From Escherichia coli (GTDB lineage Bacteria; Pseudomonadota; Gammaproteobacteria; Enterobacterales; Enterobacteriaceae): DNA of 64,000 nucleotides. The translations under genes and the position numbers were made by a program. Position 1 is the first letter of the stretch. Every line of letters starts with the position of its first letter. Shown here piece by piece: positions 16,442 through 46,699 of this stretch. The stretch lies in assembly GCF_011045215.1 (NCBI RefSeq), contig NZ_CP049201.1; one strand, given 5' to 3'. The notes under the pieces were generated by a model. The model did no database searches, was not told the origin of the DNA, and worked only from the letters and a program-made list of their open reading frames with translations.

Positions 16442-17385
16442 ATGACAAACTTCACGACCAGCACGCCGCATGACGCATTATTTAAATCTTTTCTCATGCA
16501 CCCTGACACCGCGCGGGATTTTATGGAGATCCACTTACCCAAAGATTTACGTGAACTGTGCGATCTCGACAGCTTAAAACTGGAATCCGCCAGCTTTGTC
16601 GATGAAAAATTGCGGGCGCTACACTCCGATATTCTGTGGTCGGTAAAGACCCGGGAAGGCGATGGCTATATCTATGTGGTGATTGAACATCAGAGCCGTG
16701 AGGATATTCATATGGCCTTTCGCCTGATGCGCTATTCCATGGCAGTGATGCAGCGCCATATAGAGCATGATAAACGCGGTTGCTACCGCTGGTCATCCCG
16801 ATGCTGTTTTATCACGGTAGCCGTAGTCCTTATCCCTGGTCCCTGTGCTGGCTGGACGAATTTGCCGACCCGACTACTGCACGGAAAGTTTATACTGCAG
16901 CGTTCCCGCTGGTGGATGTCACTGTCGTGCCAGACGACGAGATTGTGCAGCACCGCAGAGTCGCCCTGTTGGAGTTGATCCAAAAGCATATTCGCCAGCG
17001 CGATCTGATGGGGCTTATCGATCAACTGGTAATATTACTGGTTACAGAGTGTGCTAATGACAGCCAGATAACTGCGCTGTTAAATTACATTTTACTGACT
17101 GGCGATGAAGCGCGTTTTAATGAGTTTATCAGTGAACTTACCCGTCGAATGCCACAACAAAGGGAGCGAATAATGACGATTGCAGAGCGAATTCATAATG
17201 ATGGATGGCTGTTAGGGATGGAAAAGGGGAAAGAAGAAGGGGAACAACGCCTCCTTAGATTGCTTTTGCAGAACGGTGCGGATCCTGAATGGATACAACG
17301 ATATACTGGACTTTCGGCAGAGCAAATGCAGGCATTAGAGCAACCCTTGCCTGAAAGCAAGCGCGATCCATGGATCGAGTACTAA
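16442..17385 (+). pseudogene. rpnD: Rpn (YhgA-like, transposase_31 / PD-(D/E)XK) recombination-promoting nuclease, interrupted by a frameshift
   Basis: Two overlapping ORFs (16442..16978 and 16780..17385) in different frames together span an Rpn-family protein; the N-terminal part ([19 protein letters not shown]...YVVIEHQSR) continues in the second frame ([27 protein letters not shown]) after a frame change near 16775-16800. Confidence 0.7.
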
Positions 17386-17473
17386 TCAGAGACTGATGAC
17401 AAACGCAAAGCTGCCTGATGTGCTACGCTTATCAGACCTACATTACCTCTGCAATCTATTGAATTTGCGCGAT

Positions 17474-17510
17474 TTGTAAGCCGGATAAGGCGTTCACGCC
17501 GCATCCGGTA
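17474..17510. repeat. REP (repetitive extragenic palindromic) element
   Basis: gccggataaggcgttcacgccgcatccgg-type palindrome. Confidence 0.8.
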
Positions 17511-17626
17511 TGAACAAAGCACACTTTGCCTAAGCCATGCTGGAACGTGGCGATGCCCCTGCAAAGATAAAACGAGTCACAGGCGATTCGTGAGAGGAAA
17601 TCAGGGGCCTCGCCACTAATTCGAAT

Positions 17627-19039
17627 TCATTCCATTGCCTGATACACGGCCTCGCCAATTTGCTTCAGTGCTTCGCGATAGGTTTCGCTGAGCGGCAAAG
17701 CGCAGTTGATACGTAGACAATTACGGTATTTGCCGGAAGCCGAGAAAATCGAGCCTGCCGCCACCTGGATTTTCATGCGGTACAGCTGCCGCGCGACGCA
17801 GACCATATCGACCTGTTCAGGCAATTCTATCCACAGTAAAAATCCGCCTTTCGGGCGCGTAATACAGATTTCGCAGGGAAAATATTCCCGTATCCAGCAG
17901 GTATAAAGCGCCAAATTGCGCTGATAGATCTGCCGCATCCGCCGGATATGGCGATGATAGTGACCTTCCAGCACAAACGTTGCCGCCGCCATTTGCGTGG
18001 ACGGTACATTAAAGCTGCTGATGGCGTATTTCATATGCAGCAGTTTATCGTGATAACGCCCCGGTGCGACCCAACCCACGCGCAGGCCTGGTGCAATACT
18101 TTTACTGAACGAGCTGCACAACAGCACTCGCCCGTCGATATCCCAGGAATGAATGGTCCGCGGGCGCGGATACTCCGTTGCCAGTTCGCCGTAGACATCA
18201 TCTTCAAAAATCACAATATCATGACGCTGAGCGAGAGAGAGAACGGCCCGTTTGCGCGCGTCCGGCATAATAAATCCCAGCGGATTATTACAGTTTGGCA
18301 CCAGAATGATGCCTTTAATCGGCCACTGTTCCAGCGCCAGTTCCAGCGCTTCAACGCTGATGCCTGTTTCTGGATCGGTTGGGATTTCAATCACTTTCAC
18401 GCCCATGCCGCGCAGCATCTGCATCGAACCGTAATAACAGGGGGATTCGACCGCGACAATATCGCCCGGTTTACACACCGCCATTAACGCCAGCGACATC
18501 GAGTTATGGCAGCCGCTGGTGATAATGATGTCATCGGCGGTGACCACCGAGCCGCTGTCGAGCATCAGGCGGGCAATCTGCTCTCGCAACACTCGCTGAC
18601 CGGCTAACAAGTCATAACCGAGAACGGTTTGTAGATTATGCTGCACCACCCGGCTTAGCTCCCGCCAGAGTGGTTTCAGGCTGGGCGTTTCGACATCCGG
18701 CGTGCTTTTGCTTAACGGAACAATGGAACTGTCGCTATGCGCCTCCAGCATATCCAGTACCTGATCCCACTGAGTAATTTCCACCGGGCGCTGCACCGGA
18801 CGCGTCATCGGCGGCACTGGCGGTTGGGCTTTCCGTTGTGCGACAAAATAACCCGAACGCGGCTGCGGAGTGATGAGCTTCATCGTCTCCAGCGTCTGGT
18901 ACGCCTGCTGCACGGTGCTGATGCTGACGCCGTGCTCCTGACTTAAGCTGCGCACCGACGGCAATTTCTCCCCGTGACGATACAGCCCTTGCTCAATCCG
19001 CTCGGCAAGTAGAGTCGCCAGATGTTGATAACGCGTCAT
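17627..19039 (-). CDS. yjiR: MocR-type regulator (GntR-family HTH fused to PLP-dependent aminotransferase-like domain)
   Basis: 470-aa ORF; N-terminal wHTH, C-terminal fold-type I aminotransferase-like region; synteny. Confidence 0.85.
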   Translation of the reverse strand: MTRYQHLATLLAERIEQGLYRHGEKLPSVRSLSQEHGVSISTVQQAYQTLETMKLITPQPRSGYFVAQRKAQPPVPPMTRPVQRPVEITQWDQVLDMLEAHSDSSIVPLSKSTPDVETPSLKPLWRELSRVVQHNLQTVLGYDLLAGQRVLREQIARLMLDSGSVVTADDIIITSGCHNSMSLALMAVCKPGDIVAVESPCYYGSMQMLRGMGVKVIEIPTDPETGISVEALELALEQWPIKGIILVPNCNNPLGFIMPDARKRAVLSLAQRHDIVIFEDDVYGELATEYPRPRTIHSWDIDGRVLLCSSFSKSIAPGLRVGWVAPGRYHDKLLHMKYAISSFNVPSTQMAAATFVLEGHYHRHIRRMRQIYQRNLALYTCWIREYFPCEICITRPKGGFLLWIELPEQVDMVCVARQLYRMKIQVAAGSIFSASGKYRNCLRINCALPLSETYREALKQIGEAVYQAME

Positions 19040-19215
19040 GCTGTATTCCTTATTTGGACCATACAGAAAGAAAAACCGGTACAGATGAGGCTAAAAAACC
19101 GGATGCAGATTCTGTTTTAACCTGTCTGTATGTTAAATAAAACTAATATTTGCATCTGTATTGTGAACTGCCAGAAGGCGGATGATGAAGCCTCTGAAAG
19201 ATGAGGAGGCAGCAG

Positions 19216-19380
19216 ATGGAATTTTACGAAAACAAAGCCAAAACGCCGTTTATCAGACTTGTGCAACTCTGGCAGGCGGTGAGGCGTTGGCGGCGGCAAA
19301 TGCAGACCCGACGAGTGTTACAGCAGATGAGTGATGAGCGGTTGAGGGATATTGGGTTACGCAGGGAGGATGTGGAGTGA
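19216..19380 (+). CDS. yjiS: DUF1127-family small protein
   Basis: 54-aa ORF below the cutoff of the supplied track; I translated it by hand (MEFYENKAKTPFIRLVQLWQAVRRWRRQMQTRRVLQQMSDERLRDIGLRREDVE); RBS-like aggagg upstream. Confidence 0.7.
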   Translation: MEFYENKAKTPFIRLVQLWQAVRRWRRQMQTRRVLQQMSDERLRDIGLRREDVE

Positions 19381-19477
19381 TGGGGTATGTTCGTCGCGGA
19401 TAAACCGGATTTCGCTATAACCTTCACAAGGAAGTGGTTATTATTGCGTCATTATTGCTTCACGGAAGGACGCCAGG

Positions 19478-21571
19478 ATGAAAGCCACAGAGGCTCGCCT
19501 ACTCGATTTTTTAAAACGTTCGCAGCAGTTTGTTATTCCCATTTATCAACGCACTTATTCATGGACCGGGCAACAATGTCGGCAACTTTGGGACGACATC
19601 ATTCGTGCCGGAAAGCGTGACGATATATCAGCACATTTTATCGGTTCGGTTGTTTATATAGAGCAGGGATTGTATCAGGTTTCTGGTATTTCTCCGTTGC
19701 TGGTCATTGATGGTCAGCAGCGGCTGACGACCGCAATGTTGCTGATTGAGGCTTTATCGCGCCATCTTGGCGAAGACGAAGTTTTTGATGGCTTTTCGGC
19801 AATGAAATTGCGTAATTATTATTTGCTCAATCCTTATGAGTCCGGCGAGAAAGGTTTTAAATTACTGCTGACCGAGACTGATAAAGACAGTTTACTGGCG
19901 TTAATAAAACAAAGACCAATGCCAGAAAACTATTCCCATCGAATAATGGAAAACTTTACTTTCTTTGATGAACAAATTGCCAAACTCGGTGATGACTTGA
20001 TCCCCTTATGTCGTGGGTTAGCAAAGTTATTAATTGTCGATGTGGCGCTTAATCGTGGTCAGGATAATCCGCAACTGATTTTTGAAAGTATGAACTCTAC
20101 CGGTAAGGCGTTAAGTCAGGCCGATCTGGTGCGCAATTTTATTCTGATGGGCCTCGAACCAGAGCATCAAACCCGGTTGTATGAAGATCACTGGCGTCCA
20201 ATGGAAGTCGCTTTTGGTCAGCAAGGTTACAGCGAATATTTTGACAGTTTTATGCGTCATTATCTGACGGTAAAAACGGGGGAGATCCCTCGGACAGATG
20301 AAGTCTATGAGGCATTTAAACTCCATGCCCGCAGCCAGCGTGTTGCTGAAAAAGGCGTAGATCGGCTGGTTGAAGATATTCACATCTACGCGGAGTATTA
20401 CTGTGCAATGGCATTGGGAAAAGAAAGTGACAAATCGCTTGCTACGGCTTTTCAGGATTTGCGCGAGTTAAAGGTCGATGTGGCGTATCCTTTCTTACTG
20501 GCGCTTTATCATGACTATAAAAATGACGATTTGTCTCACGAAGATTTCCTGAGCATAATTCGTTTAATTGAATCTTATGTTTTCCGCCGTGCAGTATGTG
20601 CAATTCCGACAAATTCTTTGAACAAGACATTTGCCACTTTTTATAAAGTTATTAATAAAGAAAATTATCTGGAAAGTATTCAGGTACATTTTTTGAATCT
20701 ACCTTCATATCGTCGTTTCCCCAACGATGATGAATTTAAACGGGAATTAAAAGTTCGCGATCTCTATAACTTCCGCAGTCGCAGCTACTGGTTACGACGA
20801 CTGGAAAACGATAAACGCAGAGAGCGCGTAGAAGAGTTTACTATTGAGCATATTATGCCGCAGAACGAAAATTTGTCGGCTAAATGGCGTGAAGAGCTGG
20901 GAAGTGACTGGCAACGCATTCATAAAGAATTATTGCATACGTTGGGGGATCTCACTTTAACGCGCTATAACTCCCGCTACAGTGACAGACCTTTCGCGGA
21001 AAAACGCGATATTGAAGACGGCTTTAAACATAGCCCGCTCTATTTGAATATCGGTCTTGGACAGTGCGAAAAATGGGATGAAGCCGCCATTCATGCCCGA
21101 GCCGATCGTCTGGCCGATCTCGCGGTTCAGGTCTGGCAAGCGCCTTCTCTTCCTGAAGAGGTTTTGGCTGTTTATCGGGGACAGCCTGAAAACAAAACCA
21201 GTTACAGCCTGAGTGATTATCCTTTTCTTGCTGATGGTTCGCATAGCCGGGTGTTATTCGATCATCTTCGCGATGAAGTTATGCGCCTGGACGCAGGGAT
21301 CACGCAGGAAGTATTGAAGCTATATATTGCGTTTAAAGCTGAAACGAATTTTGTTGATGTTGTGCCGCAAAAAAGCCGACTGCGATTGTCGCTTAATATG
21401 CAGTTTCATGAACTGGTCGATCCGAAAGGTATTGCCAAAGATGTGACAAATGTTGGGCGCTGGGGCAATGGCGATGTGGAAATTGGTTTCAGTGACCTCG
21501 CACAACTTCCTTACGTTATGGGATTAATTCGTCAGGCATTTGAAAAACAGATGGAGAGCGCGTTGGTCTAA
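19478..21571 (+). CDS. DUF262 (ParB-like NTPase) / DUF1524 (His-Me finger) fusion nuclease, GmrSD-family-like; candidate type IV (modification-dependent) restriction enzyme
   Basis: 697-aa ORF. N-terminal motifs IPIYQRTYSW, LVIDGQQRLTT and FESMNSTGKALSQADLVRNF are DUF262 hallmarks; C-terminal half contains EHIMPQ and GDLTLT (DUF1524-like), followed by a ~170-aa tail with no motif I recognise. Occupies the position of mcrBC in the K-12 immigration control region. Confidence 0.75.
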   Translation: MKATEARLLDFLKRSQQFVIPIYQRTYSWTGQQCRQLWDDIIRAGKRDDISAHFIGSVVYIEQGLYQVSGISPLLVIDGQQRLTTAMLLIEALSRHLGEDEVFDGFSAMKLRNYYLLNPYESGEKGFKLLLTETDKDSLLALIKQRPMPENYSHRIMENFTFFDEQIAKLGDDLIPLCRGLAKLLIVDVALNRGQDNPQLIFESMNSTGKALSQADLVRNFILMGLEPEHQTRLYEDHWRPMEVAFGQQGYSEYFDSFMRHYLTVKTGEIPRTDEVYEAFKLHARSQRVAEKGVDRLVEDIHIYAEYYCAMALGKESDKSLATAFQDLRELKVDVAYPFLLALYHDYKNDDLSHEDFLSIIRLIESYVFRRAVCAIPTNSLNKTFATFYKVINKENYLESIQVHFLNLPSYRRFPNDDEFKRELKVRDLYNFRSRSYWLRRLENDKRRERVEEFTIEHIMPQNENLSAKWREELGSDWQRIHKELLHTLGDLTLTRYNSRYSDRPFAEKRDIEDGFKHSPLYLNIGLGQCEKWDEAAIHARADRLADLAVQVWQAPSLPEEVLAVYRGQPENKTSYSLSDYPFLADGSHSRVLFDHLRDEVMRLDAGITQEVLKLYIAFKAETNFVDVVPQKSRLRLSLNMQFHELVDPKGIAKDVTNVGRWGNGDVEIGFSDLAQLPYVMGLIRQAFEKQMESALV

Positions 21572-21585
21572 CACGGCGAATAATA

Positions 21586-21609
21586 CCCGGTAGCACTGGT
21601 GCTACCGGG
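21586..21609. terminator. Perfect palindrome (cccggtagcac/gtgctaccggg) between the convergent DUF262 gene and symE; likely bidirectional terminator
   Basis: Read directly in the sequence. Confidence 0.55.
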
Positions 21610-21617
21610 TCAATGTA

Positions 21618-21959
21618 TCAGGCAACTTTCTGTTTACCCGCAATCACTCCAATAAACTCCTGCACCTGCTTTTGTTTACGTGCCGACAGTTTGCACACCT
21701 GGCGTAGCGACTGCATCAGTTCGCTCTCTTCGGCGGTGGGTGGTTGGGCGGTGAGGACAATACAGCCTTCCATCACTTTGACATCTACCGCCGTGCCGGT
21801 GGCAAAACCGGCGGCTTCCAGCCACTGACCTTTCAGGGTGATGGCGGGAATACGGCTGTAATCCGGGTAGCGACTCGCATAACTCACGGTTAATTGACGG
21901 TTATTTGCCGGGGAGACTTCTGCTTCGAACGGTTGTGCAATAGAATGCGTGTCAGTCAT
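21618..21959 (-). CDS. symE: SOS-induced toxin-like protein SymE (type I TA system toxin)
   Basis: ORF 21618..22016 trimmed to [34 protein letters not shown]... (113 aa), matching my memory of SymE. Confidence 0.85.
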
Positions 21960-22030
21960 AACTGCTATTCTCCGATAATAGTGATTGTGATTAGCGGTGC
22001 GGGTGTGTTGGCGCACATCCGCACCGCGCT
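21954..22030 (+). ncRNA. symR: Probable SymR antisense sRNA overlapping the symE translation start (coordinates approximate)
   Basis: From established knowledge SymR is cis-encoded opposite the symE 5' end; a stem-loop (gcggtgcgg...ccgcaccgc) at ~21994-22030 on the plus strand could be its 3' structure. Ends not determined. Confidence 0.35.
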
Positions 22031-22034
22031 AAAT

Positions 22035-22054
22035 ACCTGGATATATCATCAGTA
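22035..22054. promoter_or_regulatory. LexA box (acCTGgatatatcatCAGta) in the symE promoter region
   Basis: CTG-N10-CAG with AT-rich centre, about 80 bp upstream of the symE start. Confidence 0.7.
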
Positions 22055-22186
22055 AATACAGGGAAAGTCCAGCTAAAAATAGAATAAAATAGGCAGTTTC
22101 TGGAATAATTTAAATATATTTGCGTGAGTTATGATTGGCATGAAATAATAAAAAGCGCACCGGAAAGGTGCGCCAGAAAATAATGA

Positions 22187-23563
22187 TCAGGATTTTTTAC
22201 GCGAGGCTTTTTTACCCCCGTTGGCTGCGCGTTCAGCTTTGATTTTTTCCAGCAACGCGGCGGCGCTGTTTTCTCCGCTGATTAAATCCGGGTTTTCGGC
22301 CCGCCACTGGGCGGTGAGTTCTCCACGGAACGCTTTTGCCAGGATGGATTGCGTCAGGTTGTTGACGCGGGCTAAGGCGTTGTTGACCTGTTTTTCTATG
22401 GTGTCGGCGTAGGCGAAGAGCTGCTCGACGCGGCGAACGATTTCGGCTTGTTCATAGAGTGAATATAAAGGTACCATTATTGATGAAATTTTAGAAATAC
22501 TTAATGTATAGAGTCCTGCTCCAGATGTGGCGCGATTAATAATTTCTGCCTTACCTTGTGCAGACATTAAATAGAAAAGGAGAAACCTTGGAGAAATTAT
22601 TTCTCTATTTGCCCTAACTTTTATTAAATGGTTTTGATGTACGCACTCTTTGATTTCATCACGCCATAGTGCAGCTCGACCAATTTGATCAAGACTACCA
22701 TTGCCTTCAACTATTAATAAATCTTCATACTCTAATGATACACGATCCAGTTCTTTTTGTTGAACTCCGATTTCGGAAATATCTTCTAATCTCAATTCAT
22801 TTTCATAGACATTTGCCACACGCAAATATGGAACTTGCAACTCAAAATTATTACGTTTCGAGTTTTTTGTAAGACCGCCAATCACTTGGGCTATTTGACT
22901 AATATTGAAATAATTAATTGGGGAGATATTTGTAAGTTTCCCACTTACAGCCGCAGCCAATACCGCCTGACGAAAACGTTTCATGATTTGTGGGATTTTC
23001 TCAAGGCGTGCTTTGGTGCTGTCTACTTGCGCCAGCAGCGTATCGAGTTTTTCCGCAATTATTTTTTGCTCGGCAAGTGGTGGCAACGGAAGTAGGGTAT
23101 CTTGAAGTGTCCTGGAAGAAAGATGCTTCACCGTAACCGAGGACGTATTTGCATTGATTGCGGATAAATATCCTGGTAAGGCATGATAGAAAAATCTTTT
23201 ATTGTATTTGTCTTCCTGAACTTCGATTTTACATACTCGTTGATTTAACAGAGCGGGCTCCGAGCGCCATATAGTTGTATTAAAATCACCATCCATTCCC
23301 ACGATTAAGTCTTCGGGATATACCCAATATCCCTCAGGAATTTGCCCCGAGTAATAAGTCGATGTATTACCTTTAAGAACATCACGAATTCTAATTAATG
23401 GTACACCTTCTTTACGATTATTAAATTCTGCCGACTTAAAAGCAAAACCGTTTGTGATGTTTGCTACGGAATCCATTGGAATACGTAACCAGCTCTCATG
23501 GATTGAAAGTAACCCATTGATATTTTGCTCAATTAATTCTTTTGATGTTGAGTTGAAACTCAT
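22187..23563 (-). CDS. hsdS: Type I restriction-modification specificity subunit HsdS (type IA frame, divergent TRDs)
   Basis: 458-aa ORF; central conserved region (LAEQKIIAEKLDTLLAQVDSTKAR) and C-terminal region (EQAEIVRRVEQLFAYADTIEKQVNNALARVNNLTQSILAKAFRGELTAQWRAENPDL) match my memory of EcoKI HsdS, whereas the two variable domains are AT-rich and different. Confidence 0.85.
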   Translation of the reverse strand: MSFNSTSKELIEQNINGLLSIHESWLRIPMDSVANITNGFAFKSAEFNNRKEGVPLIRIRDVLKGNTSTYYSGQIPEGYWVYPEDLIVGMDGDFNTTIWRSEPALLNQRVCKIEVQEDKYNKRFFYHALPGYLSAINANTSSVTVKHLSSRTLQDTLLPLPPLAEQKIIAEKLDTLLAQVDSTKARLEKIPQIMKRFRQAVLAAAVSGKLTNISPINYFNISQIAQVIGGLTKNSKRNNFELQVPYLRVANVYENELRLEDISEIGVQQKELDRVSLEYEDLLIVEGNGSLDQIGRAALWRDEIKECVHQNHLIKVRANREIISPRFLLFYLMSAQGKAEIINRATSGAGLYTLSISKISSIMVPLYSLYEQAEIVRRVEQLFAYADTIEKQVNNALARVNNLTQSILAKAFRGELTAQWRAENPDLISGENSAAALLEKIKAERAANGGKKASRKKS

Positions 23564-25149
23564 TCCTTCACCCCACCAAACGCTTCTTCCAGCAACTGAC
23601 GCTGCGCATCCGCCTCATCGCTCGCCCCCAGTTCACGCATCAGCGCATCCAGTTCAGACAGCGCCTGCACCAGCTCGCCCATCGCTTCTGCCGCTAATAC
23701 ATCCGGCTCCGGCAGGCTGTCGGCATCAATACTGTCTTTATCTTTCAGCCAGGAGATATCCAGCGAATCGGATTTCGCGGTGCGGATCCACTCGCGGCTG
23801 AACTTACGCCAGCGGCTGGTAGCCAGGTGCTGGTCGGTGTTTTTGTTCTCTTCGCTGTCGGCAACTTCCGTCTCTTCGGCGTTAAAACTCCATTCCCCTT
23901 CACTACGCGGGCTTAAACCGTGCGGGTCTTCGCCATACACGCGCTCAAACGGCTGCAAATACTCGTCGGTAAACGGCGTGCGTTTACCAAAGCTCGGCAT
24001 ATTGGTCCGCAGGTCGTACACCCACACGTCATCGGTGCAGTTCTTATCCTGATGCGGGTTCGCCACTGTACCTTTGGTAAAGAACAGCACGTTGGTCTTC
24101 ACGCCCTGCGCGTAAAAAATACCGGTCGGCAGACGTAGAATGGTGTGCAGATGACACTTATCCATCAGGTCACGACGAATGTCGGTGCCTTTGCCGCCTT
24201 CAAACAGCACGTTATCCGGCACCACCACCGCCGCACGACCGCCGGGATGTAGCGTTTCGATAATATGCTGCATAAAGCACAACTGTTTGTTGCTGGTCGG
24301 GTGAACAAAGGTGCGGGTAATGTTGGTGCCTGCGGCGCTGCCAAACGGCGGGTTAGTGGCGACAATATGCGCCTTCGGCAGGTTTTCGCCGTCGCTACCC
24401 AGGGTGTTGCCCAGACGGATTGCGCCGCCGTGGTCGAGGTTGCCTTCAATATCGTGCAGCAGGCAGTTCATCAGCGCCAGACGACGGGTGCCGGGCACCA
24501 GTTCGAGGCCGATAAACGCGCGGTGGATCTGGAAATCCTGCGTGTCGCCATCAAGGTCGTCCAGATCGTTAGTCTGCGACTTAACGTAGCGGTCGGCTTC
24601 AATCAAAAAGCCCGCCGTACCTGCTGCCGGGTCCTGCACCACTTCGCGCGGCTGCGGTTTCAGCAGATGAATAATGGTTTTAATCAGCGGACGCGGGGTG
24701 AAGTACTGGCCCGCGCCCGACTTGGTTTCGTTCGCGTTCTTCTGCAACAGCCCTTCGTACATATCGCCGAAGTCATCGCGCGACTTACCGTGCGCACCGT
24801 TGTACCAGTCCAGTGAATCCATATTGCTGACCAGTTCGGTCAACTGTTTCGGCTGGGTAATGGTGGTGTTGACGTTCTGGAACACCGCCTGCACCAGCTT
24901 TTGATTGTCGGCGCCCAGATGCACCAGCAGGTTACGGTAGAACTGCAACTGCTCCTGGCCGATGCGGGATTTCAGGTCATCCCAGCGGTAGCCTTCCGGC
25001 AGGTATTCCGCTTCCTGCCCGGTCTCTTTACACATTTTCAAAAACAGCAGCGAGGCGAGTTCATTGACGTAGTTTTGATAGGAAACGCCGCCATCGCGCA
25101 GGTTGTCGCACAGCTTCCACAGCTTGGCGACCAGATCGTTATTGTTCAT
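23560..25149 (-). CDS. hsdM: Type I R-M DNA methyltransferase subunit HsdM
   Basis: 529-aa ORF, N6-adenine methyltransferase with NPPF motif (ATNPPFGSAAG); 4-bp overlap with hsdS. Confidence 0.9.
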   Translation of the reverse strand: MNNNDLVAKLWKLCDNLRDGGVSYQNYVNELASLLFLKMCKETGQEAEYLPEGYRWDDLKSRIGQEQLQFYRNLLVHLGADNQKLVQAVFQNVNTTITQPKQLTELVSNMDSLDWYNGAHGKSRDDFGDMYEGLLQKNANETKSGAGQYFTPRPLIKTIIHLLKPQPREVVQDPAAGTAGFLIEADRYVKSQTNDLDDLDGDTQDFQIHRAFIGLELVPGTRRLALMNCLLHDIEGNLDHGGAIRLGNTLGSDGENLPKAHIVATNPPFGSAAGTNITRTFVHPTSNKQLCFMQHIIETLHPGGRAAVVVPDNVLFEGGKGTDIRRDLMDKCHLHTILRLPTGIFYAQGVKTNVLFFTKGTVANPHQDKNCTDDVWVYDLRTNMPSFGKRTPFTDEYLQPFERVYGEDPHGLSPRSEGEWSFNAEETEVADSEENKNTDQHLATSRWRKFSREWIRTAKSDSLDISWLKDKDSIDADSLPEPDVLAAEAMGELVQALSELDALMRELGASDEADAQRQLLEEAFGGVKE

Positions 25150-25225
25150 TGTGAGTTCCGTAAATTAAGCAGCGGCCCAAATTTATCGGGCCGCAGAAGA
25201 AGAAATTGCCGGGAATGATACCGTG

Positions 25226-28200
25226 TCAGGCCAGCTCGTCCCAGATGTAATCGCTGAATTTGCCCAGCAGGGTATCGAGATTATCGTCAAAGGTTCTTTG
25301 CAGCATCGCCTTCCCGCCGCGACGGTGGAAGTTGCCGGTTTTGAACACATCGTCGTCGAGCACCACTTTCTCTTTCAGCGCCTGCGCTAAACGATCGAGC
25401 CAGCTTAATTGCTCGCTGCTCCAGTCGTTTTCGCCCTTAATGCGCGTCAGCGCGTGATCGACACGTTCCTCAAACGGTTTCAGCGCATCTCCCACCGCAG
25501 CGCGGCGAATATGACCGATCAGCCGGGCGGCGATATCTTCATTGCGCGTCTCTTTCCACGCTTTGCGCAGGGAAGATTCCTCAAAGTGCTGGCGGTCAAA
25601 CCACTCCTGTAGCTCGACCAGCCCTTTACGGGTGAGATCGCGCGGGCGATTGATCACCGCCTGCAATGCCGGCTGTGCGTTCGGGGAACGTTGCACCAGC
25701 GAGTCAAAGGCTTCGAGGAAATCCTGCGGTGTGTCGTAATCACCGTACAGCGATTTTACGCTCACCACTTCATCGTCGATATCGAGGAAGATCGGCGCAT
25801 CATTCAGGTTATTGATGTCGGTTTTCAACTTTTCCAGACGGGCGATAAAGCCAGGCAGTTTGTTAAAGACCTCGGCGCTCCAGTGCGGCCCTTTTTCCCG
25901 CAGGCGCGAGGCGAAGCCGTTAAAGTTCACCCCCGCCGCATCCTGGCATAGCTCATCCAGACGACGCACCTGTTTATCTATCGTTTCGCTGCGGTCACGG
26001 TTAAACGTGGCCAGGCCGACGATGCGCTGGAGCTTCGCCACCAGTTGTTCATGGCTGTGCTCGGCAAAGCTGCGGCCGTCCGCTTCGGTGATTTTATAGG
26101 TTTCTGAATCGGTAATTTCGTTGACCAGCGTTTGCAGTTCCACCTTCGGACGCACCACCACCGGACGCATGGTGTCGACGCTCTCCAGCGTGCTGTAGAT
26201 ATCGACACAGTCGAAAATCTTAAAGCTGGTTTTATTCACGTCCGGGCATAAGCGTGTGGCGCGGCCTTTCATCTGCTCGTACAGAATACGGCTGCGTACT
26301 TTACGCAGGAACACGATGTTACAGATCGACGGAATATCGACGCCGGTCGTCAGCAGGTCGACGGTTACCACGATATTGGGCAGCCGCTCTTTATTGAAGC
26401 GGGTGATCATGGTCTGCACTTTGCGCGCGTCTTTATCGGCATCACCGGTGATCTTGATGATCGCGTCGTGCTCCAGTTGCGGATACTTTTTCTTGAACGC
26501 GGTACGCAGCTCTTCCACCACCATATCGGCATGAGCATTGGTGACGCAGAAGACCAGCGTTTTTTGCGACCCGGTCGGATCAAGGTAATTGGTGAGTTCA
26601 TTACAAACGGCGCGGTTAAACGCCGGGATCACCAGACCACGGTTAAAGTCGGCGACCTCAAAATCCTGATCGTCTTCCAGGGTGTCATTGATCACTTCTC
26701 CCTGCGGGCTGATGCGCTCTACCTGTTCGCCTTTGGAGAGATAAACCCCTTCCTGGGCGTTGCGGGTGGTGATTTGAATCGGCGGATCCTGGTCGATCAG
26801 AAAACCGTCGATAACCGCGGTACGGTAGGTATAACGGTAAACCGGCTCGCCGAAAATCTGCACCGTATGCAGCGCCGGGGTGGCGGTGAGGGCGATTTTT
26901 ACCGCATCGAAGTGATCGAGAATGCGACGATAGGCAGAAACGTAATCCAACTGACTGCGGAACTGCAGTTCGCCTTCGGTCTGCTCTTTATCGAGAATGT
27001 AGCCACGATGCGCTTCGTCAACAACGATACAGTCATAACGGGCCACCGGCATTGGTTCATCTGATTGCAGGGTGCGTTTCACCAGCGACTGTACGGTGGC
27101 AACGTGAATTTTGGTGCTGTCTTCCGGGAATTTATCCGTCAGCCCTTTAATGTCGAAAATGCTGTTGAAGGTGTCGCCGTTAATACGCGTATCTTCAAAC
27201 GCGCCCAGCGCCTGCTCGCCAAGAGAACGGCGATCCACAAGGAAGAGAATGCGTTTAAAACGCTGAGACTGGATCAGGCGGAACATCATGGCAATTGCGG
27301 TGCGGGTTTTACCAGTACCGGTCGCCATCGCCAGCAGGATCTCTTGTTGACCCTTGACGATTGCCTTTTCAACCGCGCGGACAGCATCTTCCTGATAATA
27401 ACGCAGGCCCAGCTCGCTCATGCCAGGGTTGTCGGCAAACCACTGATTCTGTTTTTGCGGTTCGCTGCCGAGCATTTCCAGCAGCTCTTCCGGGCGATGC
27501 CACTCGGGTAAGGCTTTCGACATATTGCGGGTATCACGCACGTCGCGATACCAGATGCCGCTTTTAGTCTTCATCGCTGCGCGATATTCGCGCCCGTTTG
27601 TGGAGTAGCAGAAGGGGATTTTAAACCGTTGTTGGCCGCTGGTGTCCTGCCAGCTGGTTTCATACTCCGGCACCGCTTCATGCACTTCATCCGGTGAGTA
27701 ATGCTCAAGCAAGGTTTCCCGCAGGAAGCCATTATCGAAACATTTACTGTAGCGATACGACTCATTGAGCTTGGCGGGAACGTCGATATTTTTACGTTTC
27801 GCCTCTACCACCGCGATGGGTTTGAGGCCGACAAACAGCACATAATCCGCAAAGCCCTGATTACCCATTTCATCTTTCCCGGTCGGCCATTCGGCAATGG
27901 CTTTATTGACGCCGGGTTCCGGGCGCGCGCCTTTGGAGAAACGCAGGGTTTTGCTGTCGGCCTGCCAGCCCGCTTTACGCAGTTGGGCATCAATCAGGAA
28001 GCGGCTCTCTTCTTCGCTGAGGTTGAGCGTGCGCTTGATGGCCTGATCGGTAATTTCTTTGTGGTAAGCCTTACGTTCCTGTTCTGTCTGTTTGGCCAGC
28101 TCCGCGTTTTTCTCGGCGAGCTGTGCTTCAAGCGCCGCAAGGCGGGCCTGGGTTTGCGCTTCGGTTTCCTGCTGTTTACCTTCCAGAATGGCGATATAGC

Positions 28201-28738
28201 CGTTCAGGGCAACCAGCTTTTGCTGCTGCGCTTCGACTTCTGCCTGACTCTGCGCTTTTTCTCGCACCTGCTGTTCAAGCTGTTGTTTTAGCGTCAGCAC
28301 TTCCTGGTGATAGAGGTTTTCACCACGTTCCGGCAACACAAACACCGGCACCGAGAAGTCATAATCTTTAGTGACCAGACGGTAGTACCAGACAGCCAGG
28401 CGAAACCCGAGTCGCAGGCACATCTGGGCATCGTCGAGATCGTTATGATATTCGTGCACCGCCTGGTTACCAATGCGGCGTAATTTGTGGAATACAGAGA
28501 GAATGTTGTCATCAACGAAGGCGATTTTGCCGAGTTCGCGCAGGAGATCGTGTTGATTCTCACAAGGGGGGATGTTGAGTAACAGACCAAGATGTTTCGC
28601 TGTGGCTTCGCCAAACATACGCATTTTAATCAGCGTCGTGTTGGGATCATCCGGGTAGTTATTCTCCGCCGCACAGGCGATGGCATAAGTGAAGTCGTTG
28701 ACGCCCTTCAGGAATTCAAAATTGGATTTATTCATCAT
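25226..28738 (-). CDS. hsdR: Type I R-M restriction endonuclease/helicase subunit HsdR
   Basis: 1170-aa ORF with SF2 helicase motifs (LLAMATGTGKTRTA Walker A, DEAH-like VVDEAHR) preceded by an N-terminal nuclease region. Confidence 0.9.
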   Translation of the reverse strand: MMNKSNFEFLKGVNDFTYAIACAAENNYPDDPNTTLIKMRMFGEATAKHLGLLLNIPPCENQHDLLRELGKIAFVDDNILSVFHKLRRIGNQAVHEYHNDLDDAQMCLRLGFRLAVWYYRLVTKDYDFSVPVFVLPERGENLYHQEVLTLKQQLEQQVREKAQSQAEVEAQQQKLVALNGYIAILEGKQQETEAQTQARLAALEAQLAEKNAELAKQTEQERKAYHKEITDQAIKRTLNLSEEESRFLIDAQLRKAGWQADSKTLRFSKGARPEPGVNKAIAEWPTGKDEMGNQGFADYVLFVGLKPIAVVEAKRKNIDVPAKLNESYRYSKCFDNGFLRETLLEHYSPDEVHEAVPEYETSWQDTSGQQRFKIPFCYSTNGREYRAAMKTKSGIWYRDVRDTRNMSKALPEWHRPEELLEMLGSEPQKQNQWFADNPGMSELGLRYYQEDAVRAVEKAIVKGQQEILLAMATGTGKTRTAIAMMFRLIQSQRFKRILFLVDRRSLGEQALGAFEDTRINGDTFNSIFDIKGLTDKFPEDSTKIHVATVQSLVKRTLQSDEPMPVARYDCIVVDEAHRGYILDKEQTEGELQFRSQLDYVSAYRRILDHFDAVKIALTATPALHTVQIFGEPVYRYTYRTAVIDGFLIDQDPPIQITTRNAQEGVYLSKGEQVERISPQGEVINDTLEDDQDFEVADFNRGLVIPAFNRAVCNELTNYLDPTGSQKTLVFCVTNAHADMVVEELRTAFKKKYPQLEHDAIIKITGDADKDARKVQTMITRFNKERLPNIVVTVDLLTTGVDIPSICNIVFLRKVRSRILYEQMKGRATRLCPDVNKTSFKIFDCVDIYSTLESVDTMRPVVVRPKVELQTLVNEITDSETYKITEADGRSFAEHSHEQLVAKLQRIVGLATFNRDRSETIDKQVRRLDELCQDAAGVNFNGFASRLREKGPHWSAEVFNKLPGFIARLEKLKTDINNLNDAPIFLDIDDEVVSVKSLYGDYDTPQDFLEAFDSLVQRSPNAQPALQAVINRPRDLTRKGLVELQEWFDRQHFEESSLRKAWKETRNEDIAARLIGHIRRAAVGDALKPFEERVDHALTRIKGENDWSSEQLSWLDRLAQALKEKVVLDDDVFKTGNFHRRGGKAMLQRTFDDNLDTLLGKFSDYIWDELA

Positions 28739-28925
28739 TGTTATTAATCCATTGCTGTGTGGGCCTGTCCAAATATTTAAGGCCCATAGCGCCTTATCTT
28801 AGCTTTCTGTACCTTTCCGGGCAATGACCACGGTCACAGCAACTGACTCATTTCTAACGTGTTCGTCTATTTTGGTAGTGTTATAGTAGCCGAAAAACAT
28901 CTACCTGATTCTGCAAGGATGTACT

Positions 28926-29839
28926 ATGACGGTTCCTACCTATGACAAATTTATTGAACCTGTTCTGCGTTATCTGGCGACAAAACCGGAAGGTGCAGCC
29001 GCGCGTGATGTTCATGAGGCTGCCGCGGATGCATTAGGACTGGATGACAGCCAGCGAGCGAAAGTCATTACCAGCGGACAACTTGTTTATAAAAATCGTG
29101 CAGGCTGGGCGCATGACCGTTTAAAACGTGCCGGGTTGTCGCAAAGTTTGTCGCGTGGCAAATGGTGCCTGACTCCTGCGGGTTTTGACTGGGTTGCGTC
29201 TCATCCCCAGCCAATGACGGAGCAGGAGACGAACCATCTGGCCTTCGATTTTGTGAATGTCAAACTTAAGTCACGGCCGGATGCCGTCGATTTAGATCCG
29301 AAAGCCGACTCTCCCGATCATGAAGAACTTGCAAAGAGCAGCCCGGACGATCGGTTAGATCAGGCGCTAAAAGAGCTTCGTGATGCGGTGGCTGATGAGG
29401 TTCTGGAAAACTTATTGCAGGTTTCTCCTTCGCGCTTTGAAGTCATTGTTCTGGATGTTTTGCATCGCCTGGGGTATGGCGGCCACCGTGATGATTTGCA
29501 GCGTGTTGGCGGTACTGGAGATGGTGGCATCGATGGTGTGATATCGCTTGATAAACTTGGCCTGGAGAAAGTTTATGTTCAGGCAAAACGTTGGCGAACA
29601 CTGTAGGCAGGCCAGAATTACAGGCATTTTACGGCGCACTGGCTGGGCAAAAGGCGAAACGTGGGGTGTTTATTACCACTTCTGGATTTACGTCTCAGGC
29701 GCGTGACTTTGCTCAATCCGTCGAGGGTATGGTGTTGGTTGATGGGGAACGCCTGGTGCACTTAATGATCGAAAACGAAGTAGGGGTTTCTTCACGTTTG
29801 TTGAAGGTGCCGAAACTGGATATGGACTATTTTGAGTGA
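28926..29839 (+). pseudogene. mrr: Mrr modification-dependent restriction endonuclease, apparently frameshifted
   Basis: Two ORFs (28926..29606, 226 aa; 29591..29839, 82 aa) in different frames jointly cover a ~304-aa Mrr; the frame changes near 29595-29606 inside the catalytic domain (…VQAKRW then stop, versus ANTVGRPELQAFYGAL… in the other frame). Confidence 0.7.
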
Positions 29840-30851: not shown

Positions 30852-31055
30852 TTAACAACAGCGCATACCGCCTTTACCATCGCCGCCGTAGCGCGCGTTC
30901 TGGCGTTCGCGGAAGAATTCTTCATAGCTCATGTACGGCTTGTCGGGATGGTTGGTCTTCATATGCTCGACGTAGTTGTCGTAGTCTGGAATGCCAATCA
31001 ACATCTTCGCCGCCTGGCCGAGATATTTTTTTGCCTGTCCTAAGTTACCAAACAT
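30852..31055 (-). CDS. yjiX: DUF466-family small protein
   Basis: ORF 30852..31181 trimmed to [32 protein letters not shown]... (67 aa); the longer ORF would read through REP sequence. Confidence 0.8.
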
Positions 31056-31103
31056 TTTGCCTTCCAGATATGCGTAAAGCCCGGAAGGTCCGGGCTGGGG
31101 ATT

Positions 31104-31182
<79 letters not shown>

Positions 31183-31185
31183 CGG

Positions 31186-33336: not shown

Positions 33337-33728
33337 AGTAAAACCTGGCATTTTACTCGTCGTCTTTTGGCTTACAGGTGCGGCAGCTGCGTTCGTTCAC
33401 CCCTGTCACTTACTGTTGTAAGCTCCCGGGGATTCACTCACTTGCTGCCTTCCTGCAAATCAAAATCCATAGAGTAATTTGTTAATCATAGGCCGAAGCC
33501 GTTCTAGGTTTGCGTTGCGTTTGAGGAGGTAAATTGACCGCTATCCTGCAGTGATGTTGCCAGAGATACGCGCGCGTAAAGTAAGGTAAATAACTGAGTG
33601 GTTATTTTAGGGATGTAAGCGGTCAGGAATGGCGGTGAGCGGTTGGGCAAGAATTATTCATCGGGTGGATATGTGATTGAGATCACAATAAAAATGCCCC
33701 TTCGACGAATGCGTGAAGGGGCTGGAGC

Positions 33729-45025: not shown

Positions 45026-46699
45026 ATGTTAAAACGTATCAAGATCGTGACCAGCTTACTGCTGGTTTTGGCCGTTTTTGGCCTTTTACAACTGACATCA
45101 GGCGGTCTGTTCTTTAATGCCTTAAAGAATGACAAAGAAAATTTCACTGTTTTACAAACCATTCGCCAGCAGCAATCTACGCTGAATGGCAGCTGGGTCG
45201 CGTTGTTGCAGACGCGTAACACCCTCAACCGCGCGGGTATCCGCTACATGATGGATCAGAATAATATTGGTAGCGGTTCAACCGTTGCTGAGCTGATGCA
45301 GAGTGCCAGTATTTCGCTGAAACAGGCGGAAAAAAACTGGGCAGATTACGAAGCGTTGCCGCGTGACCCGCGTCAGAGCACCGCCGCAGCGGCAGAGATC
45401 AAACGTAATTACGATATTTATCACAATGCGCTGGCGGAGCTGATCCAACTGTTAGGTGCAGGCAAAATCAACGAGTTCTTTGATCAGCCGACCCAGGGAT
45501 ATCAGGACGGTTTCGAGAAGCAGTATGTGGCTTACATGGAGCAAAACGATCGGCTCTATGATATCGCCGTCAGCGATAACAATGCCTCCTACAGCCAGGC
45601 GATGTGGATTCTGGTGGGCGTGATGATCGTCGTACTGGCGGTCATCTTCGCCGTCTGGTTCGGTATTAAAGCCTCGCTGGTAGCGCCAATGAATCGCCTG
45701 ATTGACAGCATTCGTCATATTGCAGGCGGCGATCTGGTGAAACCGATTGAGGTGGATGGCTCTAATGAGATGGGGCAACTGGCAGAGAGTTTGCGCCATA
45801 TGCAGGGAGAGCTGATGCGTACCGTCGGTGATGTGCGCAACGGGGCCAATGCCATCTATAGCGGTGCCAGCGAAATCGCTACCGGCAATAACGATCTCTC
45901 TTCGCGCACCGAGCAACAGGCCGCTTCGCTGGAAGAGACGGCAGCCAGCATGGAGCAACTGACCGCAACGGTGAAACAGAACGCCGAGAATGCGCGCCAG
46001 GCCAGCCACCTGGCGTTAAGTGCTTCTGAAACGGCGCAACGCGGCGGCAAAGTGGTAGATAACGTGGTGCAGACTATGCGTGATATCTCCACCAGTTCGC
46101 AGAAAATCGCCGATATTATCAGCGTAATTGACGGCATTGCCTTCCAGACCAATATTCTGGCTTTGAACGCGGCGGTTGAAGCAGCGCGTGCGGGTGAGCA
46201 AGGACGTGGTTTTGCGGTGGTTGCGGGAGAAGTGCGTAATCTGGCCCAGCGTAGCGCCCAGGCGGCTCGTGAAATTAAAAGCCTGATTGAAGACTCGGTG
46301 GGGAAAGTGGATGTTGGCTCTACGCTGGTCGAAAGCGCCGGGGAAACAATGGCGGAGATTGTCAGCGCCGTGACCCGCGTGACGGACATTATGGGCGAAA
46401 TTGCTTCTGCTTCTGATGAGCAGAGCCGTGGTATCGATCAGGTTGGCTTAGCGGTTGCTGAGATGGACCGGGTAACTCAACAGAACGCCGCGCTGGTGGA
46501 AGAATCTGCCGCTGCCGCCGCCGCGCTGGAAGAGCAGGCCAGTCGCCTGACCGAAGCTGTGGCAGTGTTCCGGATTCAGCAACAGCAGCAACAGCAGCAA
46601 CAGCAGCGTGAAACATCGGCTGTGGTAAAAACCGTGACGCCAGCTACGCCGCGTAAAATGGCAGTGGCAGATAGCGGGGAGAACTGGGAAACGTTTTAA
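45026..46699 (+). CDS. tsr: Methyl-accepting chemotaxis protein I (serine chemoreceptor)
   Basis: 557-aa ORF with periplasmic domain, HAMP, methylation helices and C-terminal NWETF pentapeptide; contains a 10-Gln tract. Confidence 0.9.
46577..46606 (+). repeat. CAG/CAA trinucleotide repeat encoding Q10 in the Tsr C-terminal linker
   Basis: cagcaacagcagcaacagcagcaacagcag read directly. Confidence 0.9.

Follow-up and report, generated by a model that had tools for sequence, protein, structure and literature searches.

The window analysed here, a stretch of 64,000 nucleotides from Escherichia coli contig NZ_CP049201.1 (assembly GCF_011045215.1), carries a defence island at positions 19216-29839 that raises a simple question: did this strain give up McrBC and Mrr, both modification-dependent, in exchange for one DUF262/DUF1524 enzyme, perhaps of different specificity, as an earlier note on the same DNA had suggested, or do its differences from K-12 have separate histories? 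Our answer, which we hold with good confidence, is that the island is an Immigration Control Region in a common state that combines a hybrid type IA restriction-modification (R-M) system with recent lesions in mrr and in the gene of a GmrSD-like nuclease. The region between yjiS and yjiA encodes a single-chain GmrSD-family enzyme, the SOS-controlled symE/symR pair, an EcoKI-family type I R-M system, and mrr, and this ordinary architecture has recently acquired a -1 frameshift in mrr, an N491D exchange in a motif of the GmrSD-like protein, and a base change upstream of hsdR. The type I system alone would then probably be kept as a fully competent barrier at the locus; the changes can be read directly from the DNA, and the loss of activity is what we infer from them. 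Judged from its genes, the strain is more likely to have reduced or no modification-dependent restriction from this island.

Open reading frame (ORF) listings together with Pfam and Rfam scans recover, across 19216-29839, every gene that the earlier note had placed there: yjiS, a GmrSD-like nuclease, symE/symR, type I R-M genes, and a frameshifted mrr. In local blastn alignments, homology to K-12 (MG1655) spans yjiR and yjiS up to position 19388 and restarts at 21622, the 3' end of symE, which provides the breakpoints that the note had left to a comparison with K-12. The variable cassette between the 3' ends of yjiS and symE (19389..21621, unstranded, 2233 bp) stands in for 7579 bp of K-12 comprising yjiT, the pseudogene yjiV', mcrC, and mcrB, so mcrBC is indeed replaced at this locus. 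DNA identity to K-12 is 97% from hsdR to yjiX and 95% in hsdM. The impression that every element except hsdM and hsdR is changed fits the mcrBC site, HsdS, and mrr but is too strong because yjiS, symE, and symR are ordinary intact orthologues with around 96% DNA identity to K-12. Over a wider range, the window proves to be chromosomal E. coli DNA: between kptA and prfC its gene order follows NZ_OZ197100.1 throughout at around 98.5% identity, and no unaligned stretch between the two exceeds around 440 bp.

Neither the cassette nor its position is peculiar to this strain. Among 5426 complete E. coli genomes, over which all population counts were taken, 1357 carry the GmrSD-like cassette at a coverage of at least 80% and 1482 show any match to it. 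The gene symE is essentially single-copy and present in around 2900 of these genomes, and its commonest neighbour is the GmrSD-like gene, with 1285 GmrSD-symE junctions versus 590 mcrB-symE junctions. K-12-type mcrBC occurs in 597 genomes, in one copy each, never on a plasmid, and almost always beside symE. The GmrSD-like cassette and mcrBC are alternative occupants of one site, with the GmrSD-like version being commoner, and represent an old allelic polymorphism of the species. The earlier note had allowed that the locus might simply be the commonest E. coli configuration; this is the case for the segment from yjiS to symE but not for the complete 11-kb combination of cassette, type IA hsd genes, and mrr, which is found at a coverage of at least 80% in 253 genomes.

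Cassette-like variation of the Immigration Control Region was reportedly described by Sibley and Raleigh in 2004. The view that this is a known hotspot of defence-gene turnover agrees with published work (PMC4437046, PMC12707154): GmrSD homologues have been found there together with type I and Mrr genes where McrBC is absent (He 2015, PMC4437046, Fig. 8), and a recent review likewise notes that McrBC is replaced by a GmrSD homologue in some genomes (EcoSal Plus 2025, PMC12707154), giving frequencies in the region of 12% for GmrSD, 6% for McrBC, 22% for Mrr, and 14% for type IA systems (its Table 3). The locus in the window is this Immigration Control Region, also known as defence hotspot 36, and represents a common allelic state of it, with the same framework genes yjiS and yjiA and the same alternatives between them (mrr, the hsd families of type I, and either mcrBC or a GmrSD homologue). 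It shows no difference in kind, and what is strain-specific amounts to the HsdS allele, a missing ERIC-like repeat, and three private mutations.

The first of these mutations lies in mrr (28926-29839, plus strand), where a single A is deleted at 29596 (TGGC[A]GAA, codon 224 of 304) outside any homopolymer. The deletion splits the gene into frames of 226 (28926-29606) and 82 amino acids (29591-29839), shifting the frame after W223 into RTL and a stop just past the catalytic QAK motif. The truncated protein keeps the winged-helix domain and D...QAK but ends 81 residues short (224-304 are missing), which removes half of the catalytic domain, and positions 2-58 and 59-115 of the Mrr_cat profile fall into separate frames rather than into one intact Mrr of around 304 amino acids. 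Restoring the A at 29596 yields a 304-aa protein that differs from K-12 Mrr by one residue. No exact match to the deleted form exists among the 950 complete genomes that match this segment, and in an exact look-up the truncated protein was found only in the Logan assembly of sequencing run SRR11014969. The earlier impression that mrr looks inactivated is thus borne out by the split catalytic domain, and the frameshift probably disables Mrr.

The second mutation is an A-to-G substitution at 20948 (plus strand), the sole substitution in the 2233-bp cassette compared to NZ_OZ197100.1, and it turns the conserved asparagine of the L(G/A)NLxLL motif in the nuclease domain of the GmrSD-like protein into aspartate (N491D; here LGDLTL). 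Residue 491 is asparagine in all 124 diverse representatives of the family, in all 32 closer homologues, and in all nine sampled E. coli alleles with a readable motif (165 sequences in total), and the position is even more conserved than H458 (histidine in 121 of the 124). The other elements of the GmrSD DUF1524 signature, IEHIMPQ and N498, are in place, and the aspartate in the second motif is found in this strain only. An 81-mer coding for D491 has no exact match in 1288 genomes; the D491 protein occurs on one public contig (QIF15163.1, on a chromosome of 5,409,430 bp) and the N491 protein on 27 (exact look-up). The equivalent asparagine was predicted to be structurally crucial (Machnicka 2015, PMC4619093), and it seems that N491D probably disables or impairs the nuclease. 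The third mutation, an A-to-G change at 28789 (unstranded), sits in the intergenic region between the divergent hsdR and mrr, 51 nt upstream of the hsdR ATG and inside a small inverted repeat (TAAGGC...GCCTTA); the position is A in K-12, B, and NZ_OZ197100.1.

All three changes can be dated with the help of close relatives. Five assemblies with an exact HsdR match (GCA_013049645.1, ERR3329136, SRR8062141, SRR8297627, and SRR8297619) are 99.93-99.97% identical to the window and carry the same cassette together with an intact mrr, A28789 in all five, and N491 in each of the four whose contigs reach position 20948. The Logan read assembly of the strain itself (SRR11014969) agrees with the window at every position over 10,205 bp (100% identity), both lesions included. 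Being reproduced in the read assembly and lacking in five near-identical relatives, the mrr frameshift, N491D, and G28789 are real, derived, and recent. Since these relatives carry the cassette with an intact mrr, the frameshift is unrelated in time to the cassette. Other derived substitutions of the strain are found nearby in yjiA (I182) and btsT.

The type I genes, all on the minus strand and in the order hsdR then hsdM-hsdS, tell a different story. The restriction and translocase subunit HsdR (25226-28738, 1170 aa; Pfam ResIII, HSDR_N, and EcoEI_R_C; PADLOC REase_I, 2809 bits) and the N6-adenine methyltransferase subunit HsdM (23560-25149, 529 aa; Pfam N6_Mtase, E 2e-94) are intact and have no internal stops; HsdR differs from its EcoKI counterpart at 12 of 1170 residues and HsdM at 14 of 529, with 7 differences from E. 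coli B. Intact frames, gene order, and 95-97% DNA identity mark the system as type IA (EcoKI family). Its specificity subunit HsdS (22187-23563, 458 aa) has the type IA layout with two target recognition domains (TRDs), the central and C-terminal regions being identical to EcoKI and EcoBI at 46-49 of 53 and 84-87 of 90 positions, respectively, and only these conserved parts align with K-12 hsdS by blastn. TRD1 (residues 1-158) is identical at 152 of 158 positions to that of EcoBI, the HsdS of E. coli B, but only 20% identical to that of EcoKI, whereas TRD2 (residues 212-368) shares 23-24% identity with either (34 of 148 positions for EcoBI). The protein thus matches EcoBI in TRD1 and not in TRD2. 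Of the notion of a novel HsdS with different recognition domains, only the part concerning the rare TRD2 survives; TRD1 is that of EcoBI.

HsdS is accordingly not a wholly novel subunit but arose by reassortment of recognition domains in the manner of StySQ. Next to EcoBI and EcoKI, the system shows around 97-99% identical HsdR and HsdM, the same gene order, the same conserved HsdS regions, and a TRD1 that is 96% identical to EcoBI, and differs by its unrelated TRD2 and by a spacer between hsdR and hsdM without a 124-bp repeat. The natural hybrids StySQ and StySJ have the same build of a known recognition domain joined to a different second one between conserved flanks; what sets the HsdS of the window apart is its TRD2, whose nearest relatives are half-size S subunits from environmental metagenomes at no more than 67% identity. 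A TRD2 search across 5.8 billion proteins returned a single E. coli cluster at 100% with the next match, at 67%, from metagenomes; the full hsdS allele is present in one of the 5426 complete genomes, and the exact HsdS protein on 43 public contigs. EcoBI recognises TGA N8 TGCT, and the N-terminal recognition domain sets the 5' half-site (PMC3874165, Tables 1-2). Because TRD1 matches EcoBI and this domain specifies the 5' half-site, we predict from the 96% identity that the type I system should methylate and restrict at TGA(N)x followed by another 3' half-site.

The gene in the cassette (19478-21571, plus strand) is an intact 697-aa frame with matches to Pfam GmrSD_N (E 4e-34), GmrSD_C (E 5e-25), and DUF5655 (E 8e-14). 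Its product can be divided into four modules: the DUF262/ParB-like NTPase with D78-G-Q-Q-R82 is followed by a helical linker, the His-Me/HNH nuclease of the DUF1524 type (E457-H458 ... D491 ... N498), and the C-terminal DUF5655 domain (around residues 575-697). The NTPase motif VIDGQQRLTT occupies residues 76-85, with D78, Q81, and R82 invariant in 124 of 124 representatives, and the DUF1524 motifs defined previously as (E/D)HxxPQ, L(G/A)NLxLLxxxN, and NxxFxxKK (Machnicka 2015, PMC4619093) read IEHIMPQ, LG[D]LTLTRYN, and SDRPFAEKR; the family allele conforms to the second motif, from which this copy deviates at a single residue. The family comprises 18,570 representatives of 50%-identity clusters at E <=1e-3, and the three-domain form of around 700 amino acids shows at least 70% identity between bacteria as different as Enterobacteriaceae and Kiritimatiella; the C-terminal domain is retained in 103 of the 124 diverse representatives. 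By sequence, no relative of DUF5655 was found in the PDB or among other Pfam families, and a homologue search with this domain alone brought up no new architectures, all matches being fragments from the same family. Its alpha-beta sandwich of a helix, an antiparallel sheet, and a C-terminal helix has the YjbR/YdhG "double-wing" (CyaY-like) fold. Given that YjbR and DUF419 have been described as double-wing DNA-binding folds and that McrB-N was reported to resemble YjbR (PMC3424535, PMC7641849), DUF5655 probably adds contacts to DNA or modified bases, as judged by fold similarity.

With GmrSD, Eco94GmrSD, and BrxU, the window protein has in common the single chain, the DGQQR NTPase motif, the (E/D)HxxPQ, GNLxL, and N motifs of the nuclease, and the location in a defence island. 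It is set apart by remote sequence similarity, by its additional C-terminal DUF5655, and, in this strain, by aspartate in place of the GNL asparagine. Protection against T-even phages has been reported for related GmrSD-like proteins and depends on their DGQQR and (E/D)H residues (PMC8565348, PMC12373910, bioRxiv 10.1101/2024.01.29.577857). By analogy, the protein would be an NTP-dependent nuclease that attacks hypermodified phage DNA, carrying, e.g., hydroxymethylcytosine (hmC) or glucosyl-hmC. A stand-alone modification-dependent nuclease of this kind is favoured over a DndI-like sensor of a self mark because related proteins defend against T-even phages, no dnd or ssp genes are found nearby, and nearly the same protein occurs beside type I systems of different specificity.

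Several points weigh against our reading. Mutants published for enzymes of the GmrSD family affect the D/E-H pair, N522 of Eco94GmrSD, which lies elsewhere (PMC4619093), and N541 of DndI, which aligns to N498 here, but none affects the counterpart of N491. A change from asparagine to aspartate is conservative and could leave partial activity. As the strain has other derived substitutions nearby, the hits in two nuclease genes may reflect drift instead of selection. The predicted TGA half-site assumes that the six substitutions in TRD1 leave specificity unchanged. For the nuclease itself, the literature searched contains no tested member of the 697-aa DUF5655-bearing subfamily, and DndI follows the opposite logic to GmrSD in attacking unmodified DNA while being restrained by a self mark (PMC11662687). 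The full-length AlphaFold model is poor (predicted local distance difference test score, pLDDT, of 67; an alignment of 33 sequences at 70-98% identity) and was used solely for a coarse Foldseek match. Since the published mutants hit other residues, we dropped the claim that the equivalent of N491 is proven to be essential.

Selection may plausibly have favoured loss of the two nucleases. A scenario that would add to a common-state Immigration Control Region with recent lesions, and that we regard as possible though unlikely, is that the strain acquired a foreign DNA modification, e.g., through a methyltransferase of a prophage or plasmid, that Mrr and the GmrSD-like nuclease attacked the DNA of their own host, and that loss mutants were selected. 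Both modification-dependent nucleases carry private, derived, and qualitatively damaging changes while the type I genes are intact, Mrr is genotoxic in combination with certain foreign methyltransferases (PMC3152355), and the large chromosome of 5.41 Mb suggests many accessory elements. However, the 64-kb window encodes no DNA methyltransferase besides hsdM, neutral-looking derived substitutions occur nearby at similar density so that chance may be enough, and the effect of N491D is a predicted one.

A more ambitious version of this idea seems doubtful to us: DUF262-DUF1524-DUF5655 proteins might form a distinct, very widely transferred GmrSD-like subfamily whose double-wing domain is dedicated to reading a modified base or a self mark, giving it a substrate range unlike that of GmrSD and BrxU, and the private lesions that this strain carries at the same time in Mrr and in this enzyme might record selection against self-attack after a new DNA modification had arrived. 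The double-wing domain shares its fold class with the N-terminal 5-methylcytosine reader of McrB.

We find it improbable that the three differences from K-12 represent a single event, i.e., an adaptive exchange of McrBC and Mrr for one DUF262/DUF1524 enzyme of different specificity. Such an exchange would fit a locus that has a GmrSD-family gene but no McrBC and whose mrr is broken, and it would fit the differences in substrate range between McrBC and enzymes of the GmrSD family (PMC4437046, PMC8565348). Yet the cassette alternative is ancient and species-wide, with 1285 junctions against 590, and most carriers of the cassette keep an intact mrr, as annotated under the matches in the listed records and as seen in five of five close relatives. 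The mrr lesion is confined to a single strain in a background that is one amino acid away from K-12 Mrr, and the supposed replacement enzyme may itself be impaired because its private change affects an invariant residue of the nuclease motif. The proposed trade of two modification-dependent systems for one, already contradicted by the relatives, is thus largely refuted: the cassette is old and common, the loss of mrr is a separate matter, and N491D lies in the replacement enzyme.

Comparably improbable is that the GmrSD-like protein works like DndI or SspE, phosphorothioate-sensing DUF262-HNH effectors, and attacks unmarked DNA but spares the host chromosome, on which it would sense a self mark; adenine methylation by the neighbouring type I system or by Dam would be a candidate for this mark. 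The window protein shares the two-domain DUF262-HNH core with both, and DndI (PDB 9jfl) is its closest solved structure by sequence (phmmer E 3e-12) and by fold (Foldseek E 3.6e-9, using the fold of a low-confidence model); BrxU is more distant, with no phmmer match and a Foldseek E of 0.027. PADLOC gives the best scores to Orf5 (738 bits) and HEC-06 (220 bits). The accessions of Orf5 belong to the phosphorothioate block and directly precede PbeA, and we infer that Orf5 is DndI. Besides, GmrSD homologues are most often found beside type I R-M genes (PMC4619093), and DUF5655 could be a sensor. DndI, however, is only around 18% identical, lacks DUF5655, targets unmodified DNA, and itself depends on a self mark, and the annotation of the collinear NZ_OZ197100.1 reveals no dnd or ssp modification genes across the 64-kb window. 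A protein with around 97% identity has type IA systems of differing specificity as its neighbours and, in O157:H7, a type IB system, and a more distant allele with 76% identity adjoins a further type I system along with genes for Fic and BrnA; a protein with such varied neighbours cannot read one type I target. Moreover, DndI is toxic without its modification (PMC11662687), yet 8 of 10 sampled E. coli genomes have the gene of the window intact and no partner for it.

Very improbable, finally, is that both lesions are artefacts of sequencing or assembly in a fully functional locus, since, although the record of the window is absent from the RefSeq complete-genome set (best match 98.5-98.8%) and single-base indels are a common assembly error, the independent k-mer assembly of SRR11014969 agrees at both sites, the mrr deletion lies outside a homopolymer, N491D is a substitution rather than an indel, and mrr is the only otherwise intact gene noted as disrupted over the 64 kb compared to the nearest complete genome (not every indel was mapped to coding sequence).

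The common-state Immigration Control Region favoured here also bears traces of how its parts spread. Around 7 kb of the window (17100-24181) are identical to NZ_OZ197100.1 save two sites, while the flanks differ by 1.5-4%. The identical block starts with yjiR and yjiS, continues through the cassette, symE, and hsdS, and takes in the 3' third of hsdM, with the right-hand recombination breakpoint inside hsdM between 23560 and 24181. Identity over around 7 kb to an otherwise 1.5%-diverged genome is the signature expected when specificity alleles are exchanged via conserved flanking sequence. From the cassette to this part of hsdM, the genes, symE and hsdS among them, would therefore move between lineages as a block by homologous recombination.

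Regarding the GmrSD-like gene in other genomes, RefSeq annotation by the Prokaryotic Genome Annotation Pipeline (PGAP) splits the intact 697-aa gene into a partial DUF262 pseudogene and a 387-aa GmrSD_C coding sequence in all eight sampled genomes with an open frame (records L001, at 3479-5572, L008-L013, and L015). This split is likely caused by evidence proteins from the O157:H7 copy, which is frameshifted with a stop at codon 294 and adjoins a type IB system, and it means that surveys of defence systems undercount or miscount the GmrSD-like gene. In O157:H7 strain 2149, the position of mrr holds a short DUF262 ORF and a 452-aa HNH endonuclease-family gene (record L003, 17791-19442), so that the O157:H7 island contains two different DUF262/HNH systems.

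The gain for the field is small, given that the type of locus, the alternative of GmrSD for McrBC, and the reshuffling of HsdS domains are all textbook knowledge or recently reviewed. Residual interest lies in the DUF5655-bearing GmrSD subfamily, in the natural pair of N491 and D491 alleles, and in the uncharacterised hybrid type I specificity. About one quarter of complete E. coli genomes carry the three-domain GmrSD-like enzyme, and the N491 and D491 siblings form a pair that is identical at every other residue. The HsdS allele comes with a concrete and checkable target prediction, TGA plus a second half-site. Anyone transforming this strain or attacking it with phage should expect type I restriction and probably little restriction of methylated or hypermodified DNA from the island.

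The remaining genes of the island are unremarkable. The gene yjiS (19216-19380, plus strand) encodes a small DUF1127 protein of 54 amino acids (Pfam E 2e-13) that is the same as in NZ_OZ197100.1 and differs from K-12 at five residues, and it is a conserved left-hand framework gene of the island. SymE is SOS-induced and classed as a type I toxin or, in the current annotation of K-12, as a nucleoid-associated protein. In the window, symE (21618-21959, minus strand, 113 aa; Pfam SymE_toxin, E 2e-21) differs from K-12 at five residues, and its 5' end (start at 21959) is overlapped by the antisense RNA symR (21954-22030, plus strand), which matches Rfam RF01809 over its full length (1-77) with 90.9 bits (gathering score 61) and E 5e-17. 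A LexA-box-like CTG-N10-CAG at 22037 lies upstream of symE, so that a SymE_toxin ORF, a cis-antisense symR over its 5' end, and the upstream LexA-box-like sequence together identify the SymE/SymR pair. Scans for promoters and terminators gave counts not above those in shuffled sequence, and we therefore make no regulatory claims.

The spacer between hsdR and hsdM (25150..25225, unstranded) measures 76 bp versus 200 bp in K-12, B, and NZ_OZ197100.1. What is missing around 25211-25222 is a dispersed repeat of 124 bp, carried by these three and absent also from the close relatives of the strain; a hairpin at 25172-25194 is kept. We take this repeat to be related to enterobacterial repetitive intergenic consensus (ERIC) elements or intergenic repeat units (IRU). 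A partial copy is found at 33386-33458, upstream of btsT.

A few other features of the window are worth recording. Between yjiX and btsT (31055-31183), a palindromic insert of the repetitive extragenic palindrome/bacterial interspersed mosaic element (REP/BIME) type spans 127 bp versus 46 bp in K-12, with a sub-threshold Rfam match to naRNA4 (47 bits). To the left of the island, an Rpn-family gene (rpnD, yjiP/yjiQ; 16442-17385) is in two frames and also annotated as frameshifted in NZ_OZ197100.1 and O157:H7; this pseudogene is common to several lineages. The adjacent yjiR is intact in the window (470 aa), while its copy in NZ_OZ197100.1 (record L001, 1629-3040) has a 1-base deletion at window position 18560 and is annotated as frameshifted. 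At 59468-59554, the window has one tRNA-Leu(CAG) gene where NZ_OZ197100.1 has three in tandem (record L006, 24719-25041), the leuQPV array of K-12; this may reflect either a deletion by recombination between repeats or an assembly collapse. Compared to the same genome, tsr has gained a 9-bp in-frame CAGCAACAG repeat at 46577.

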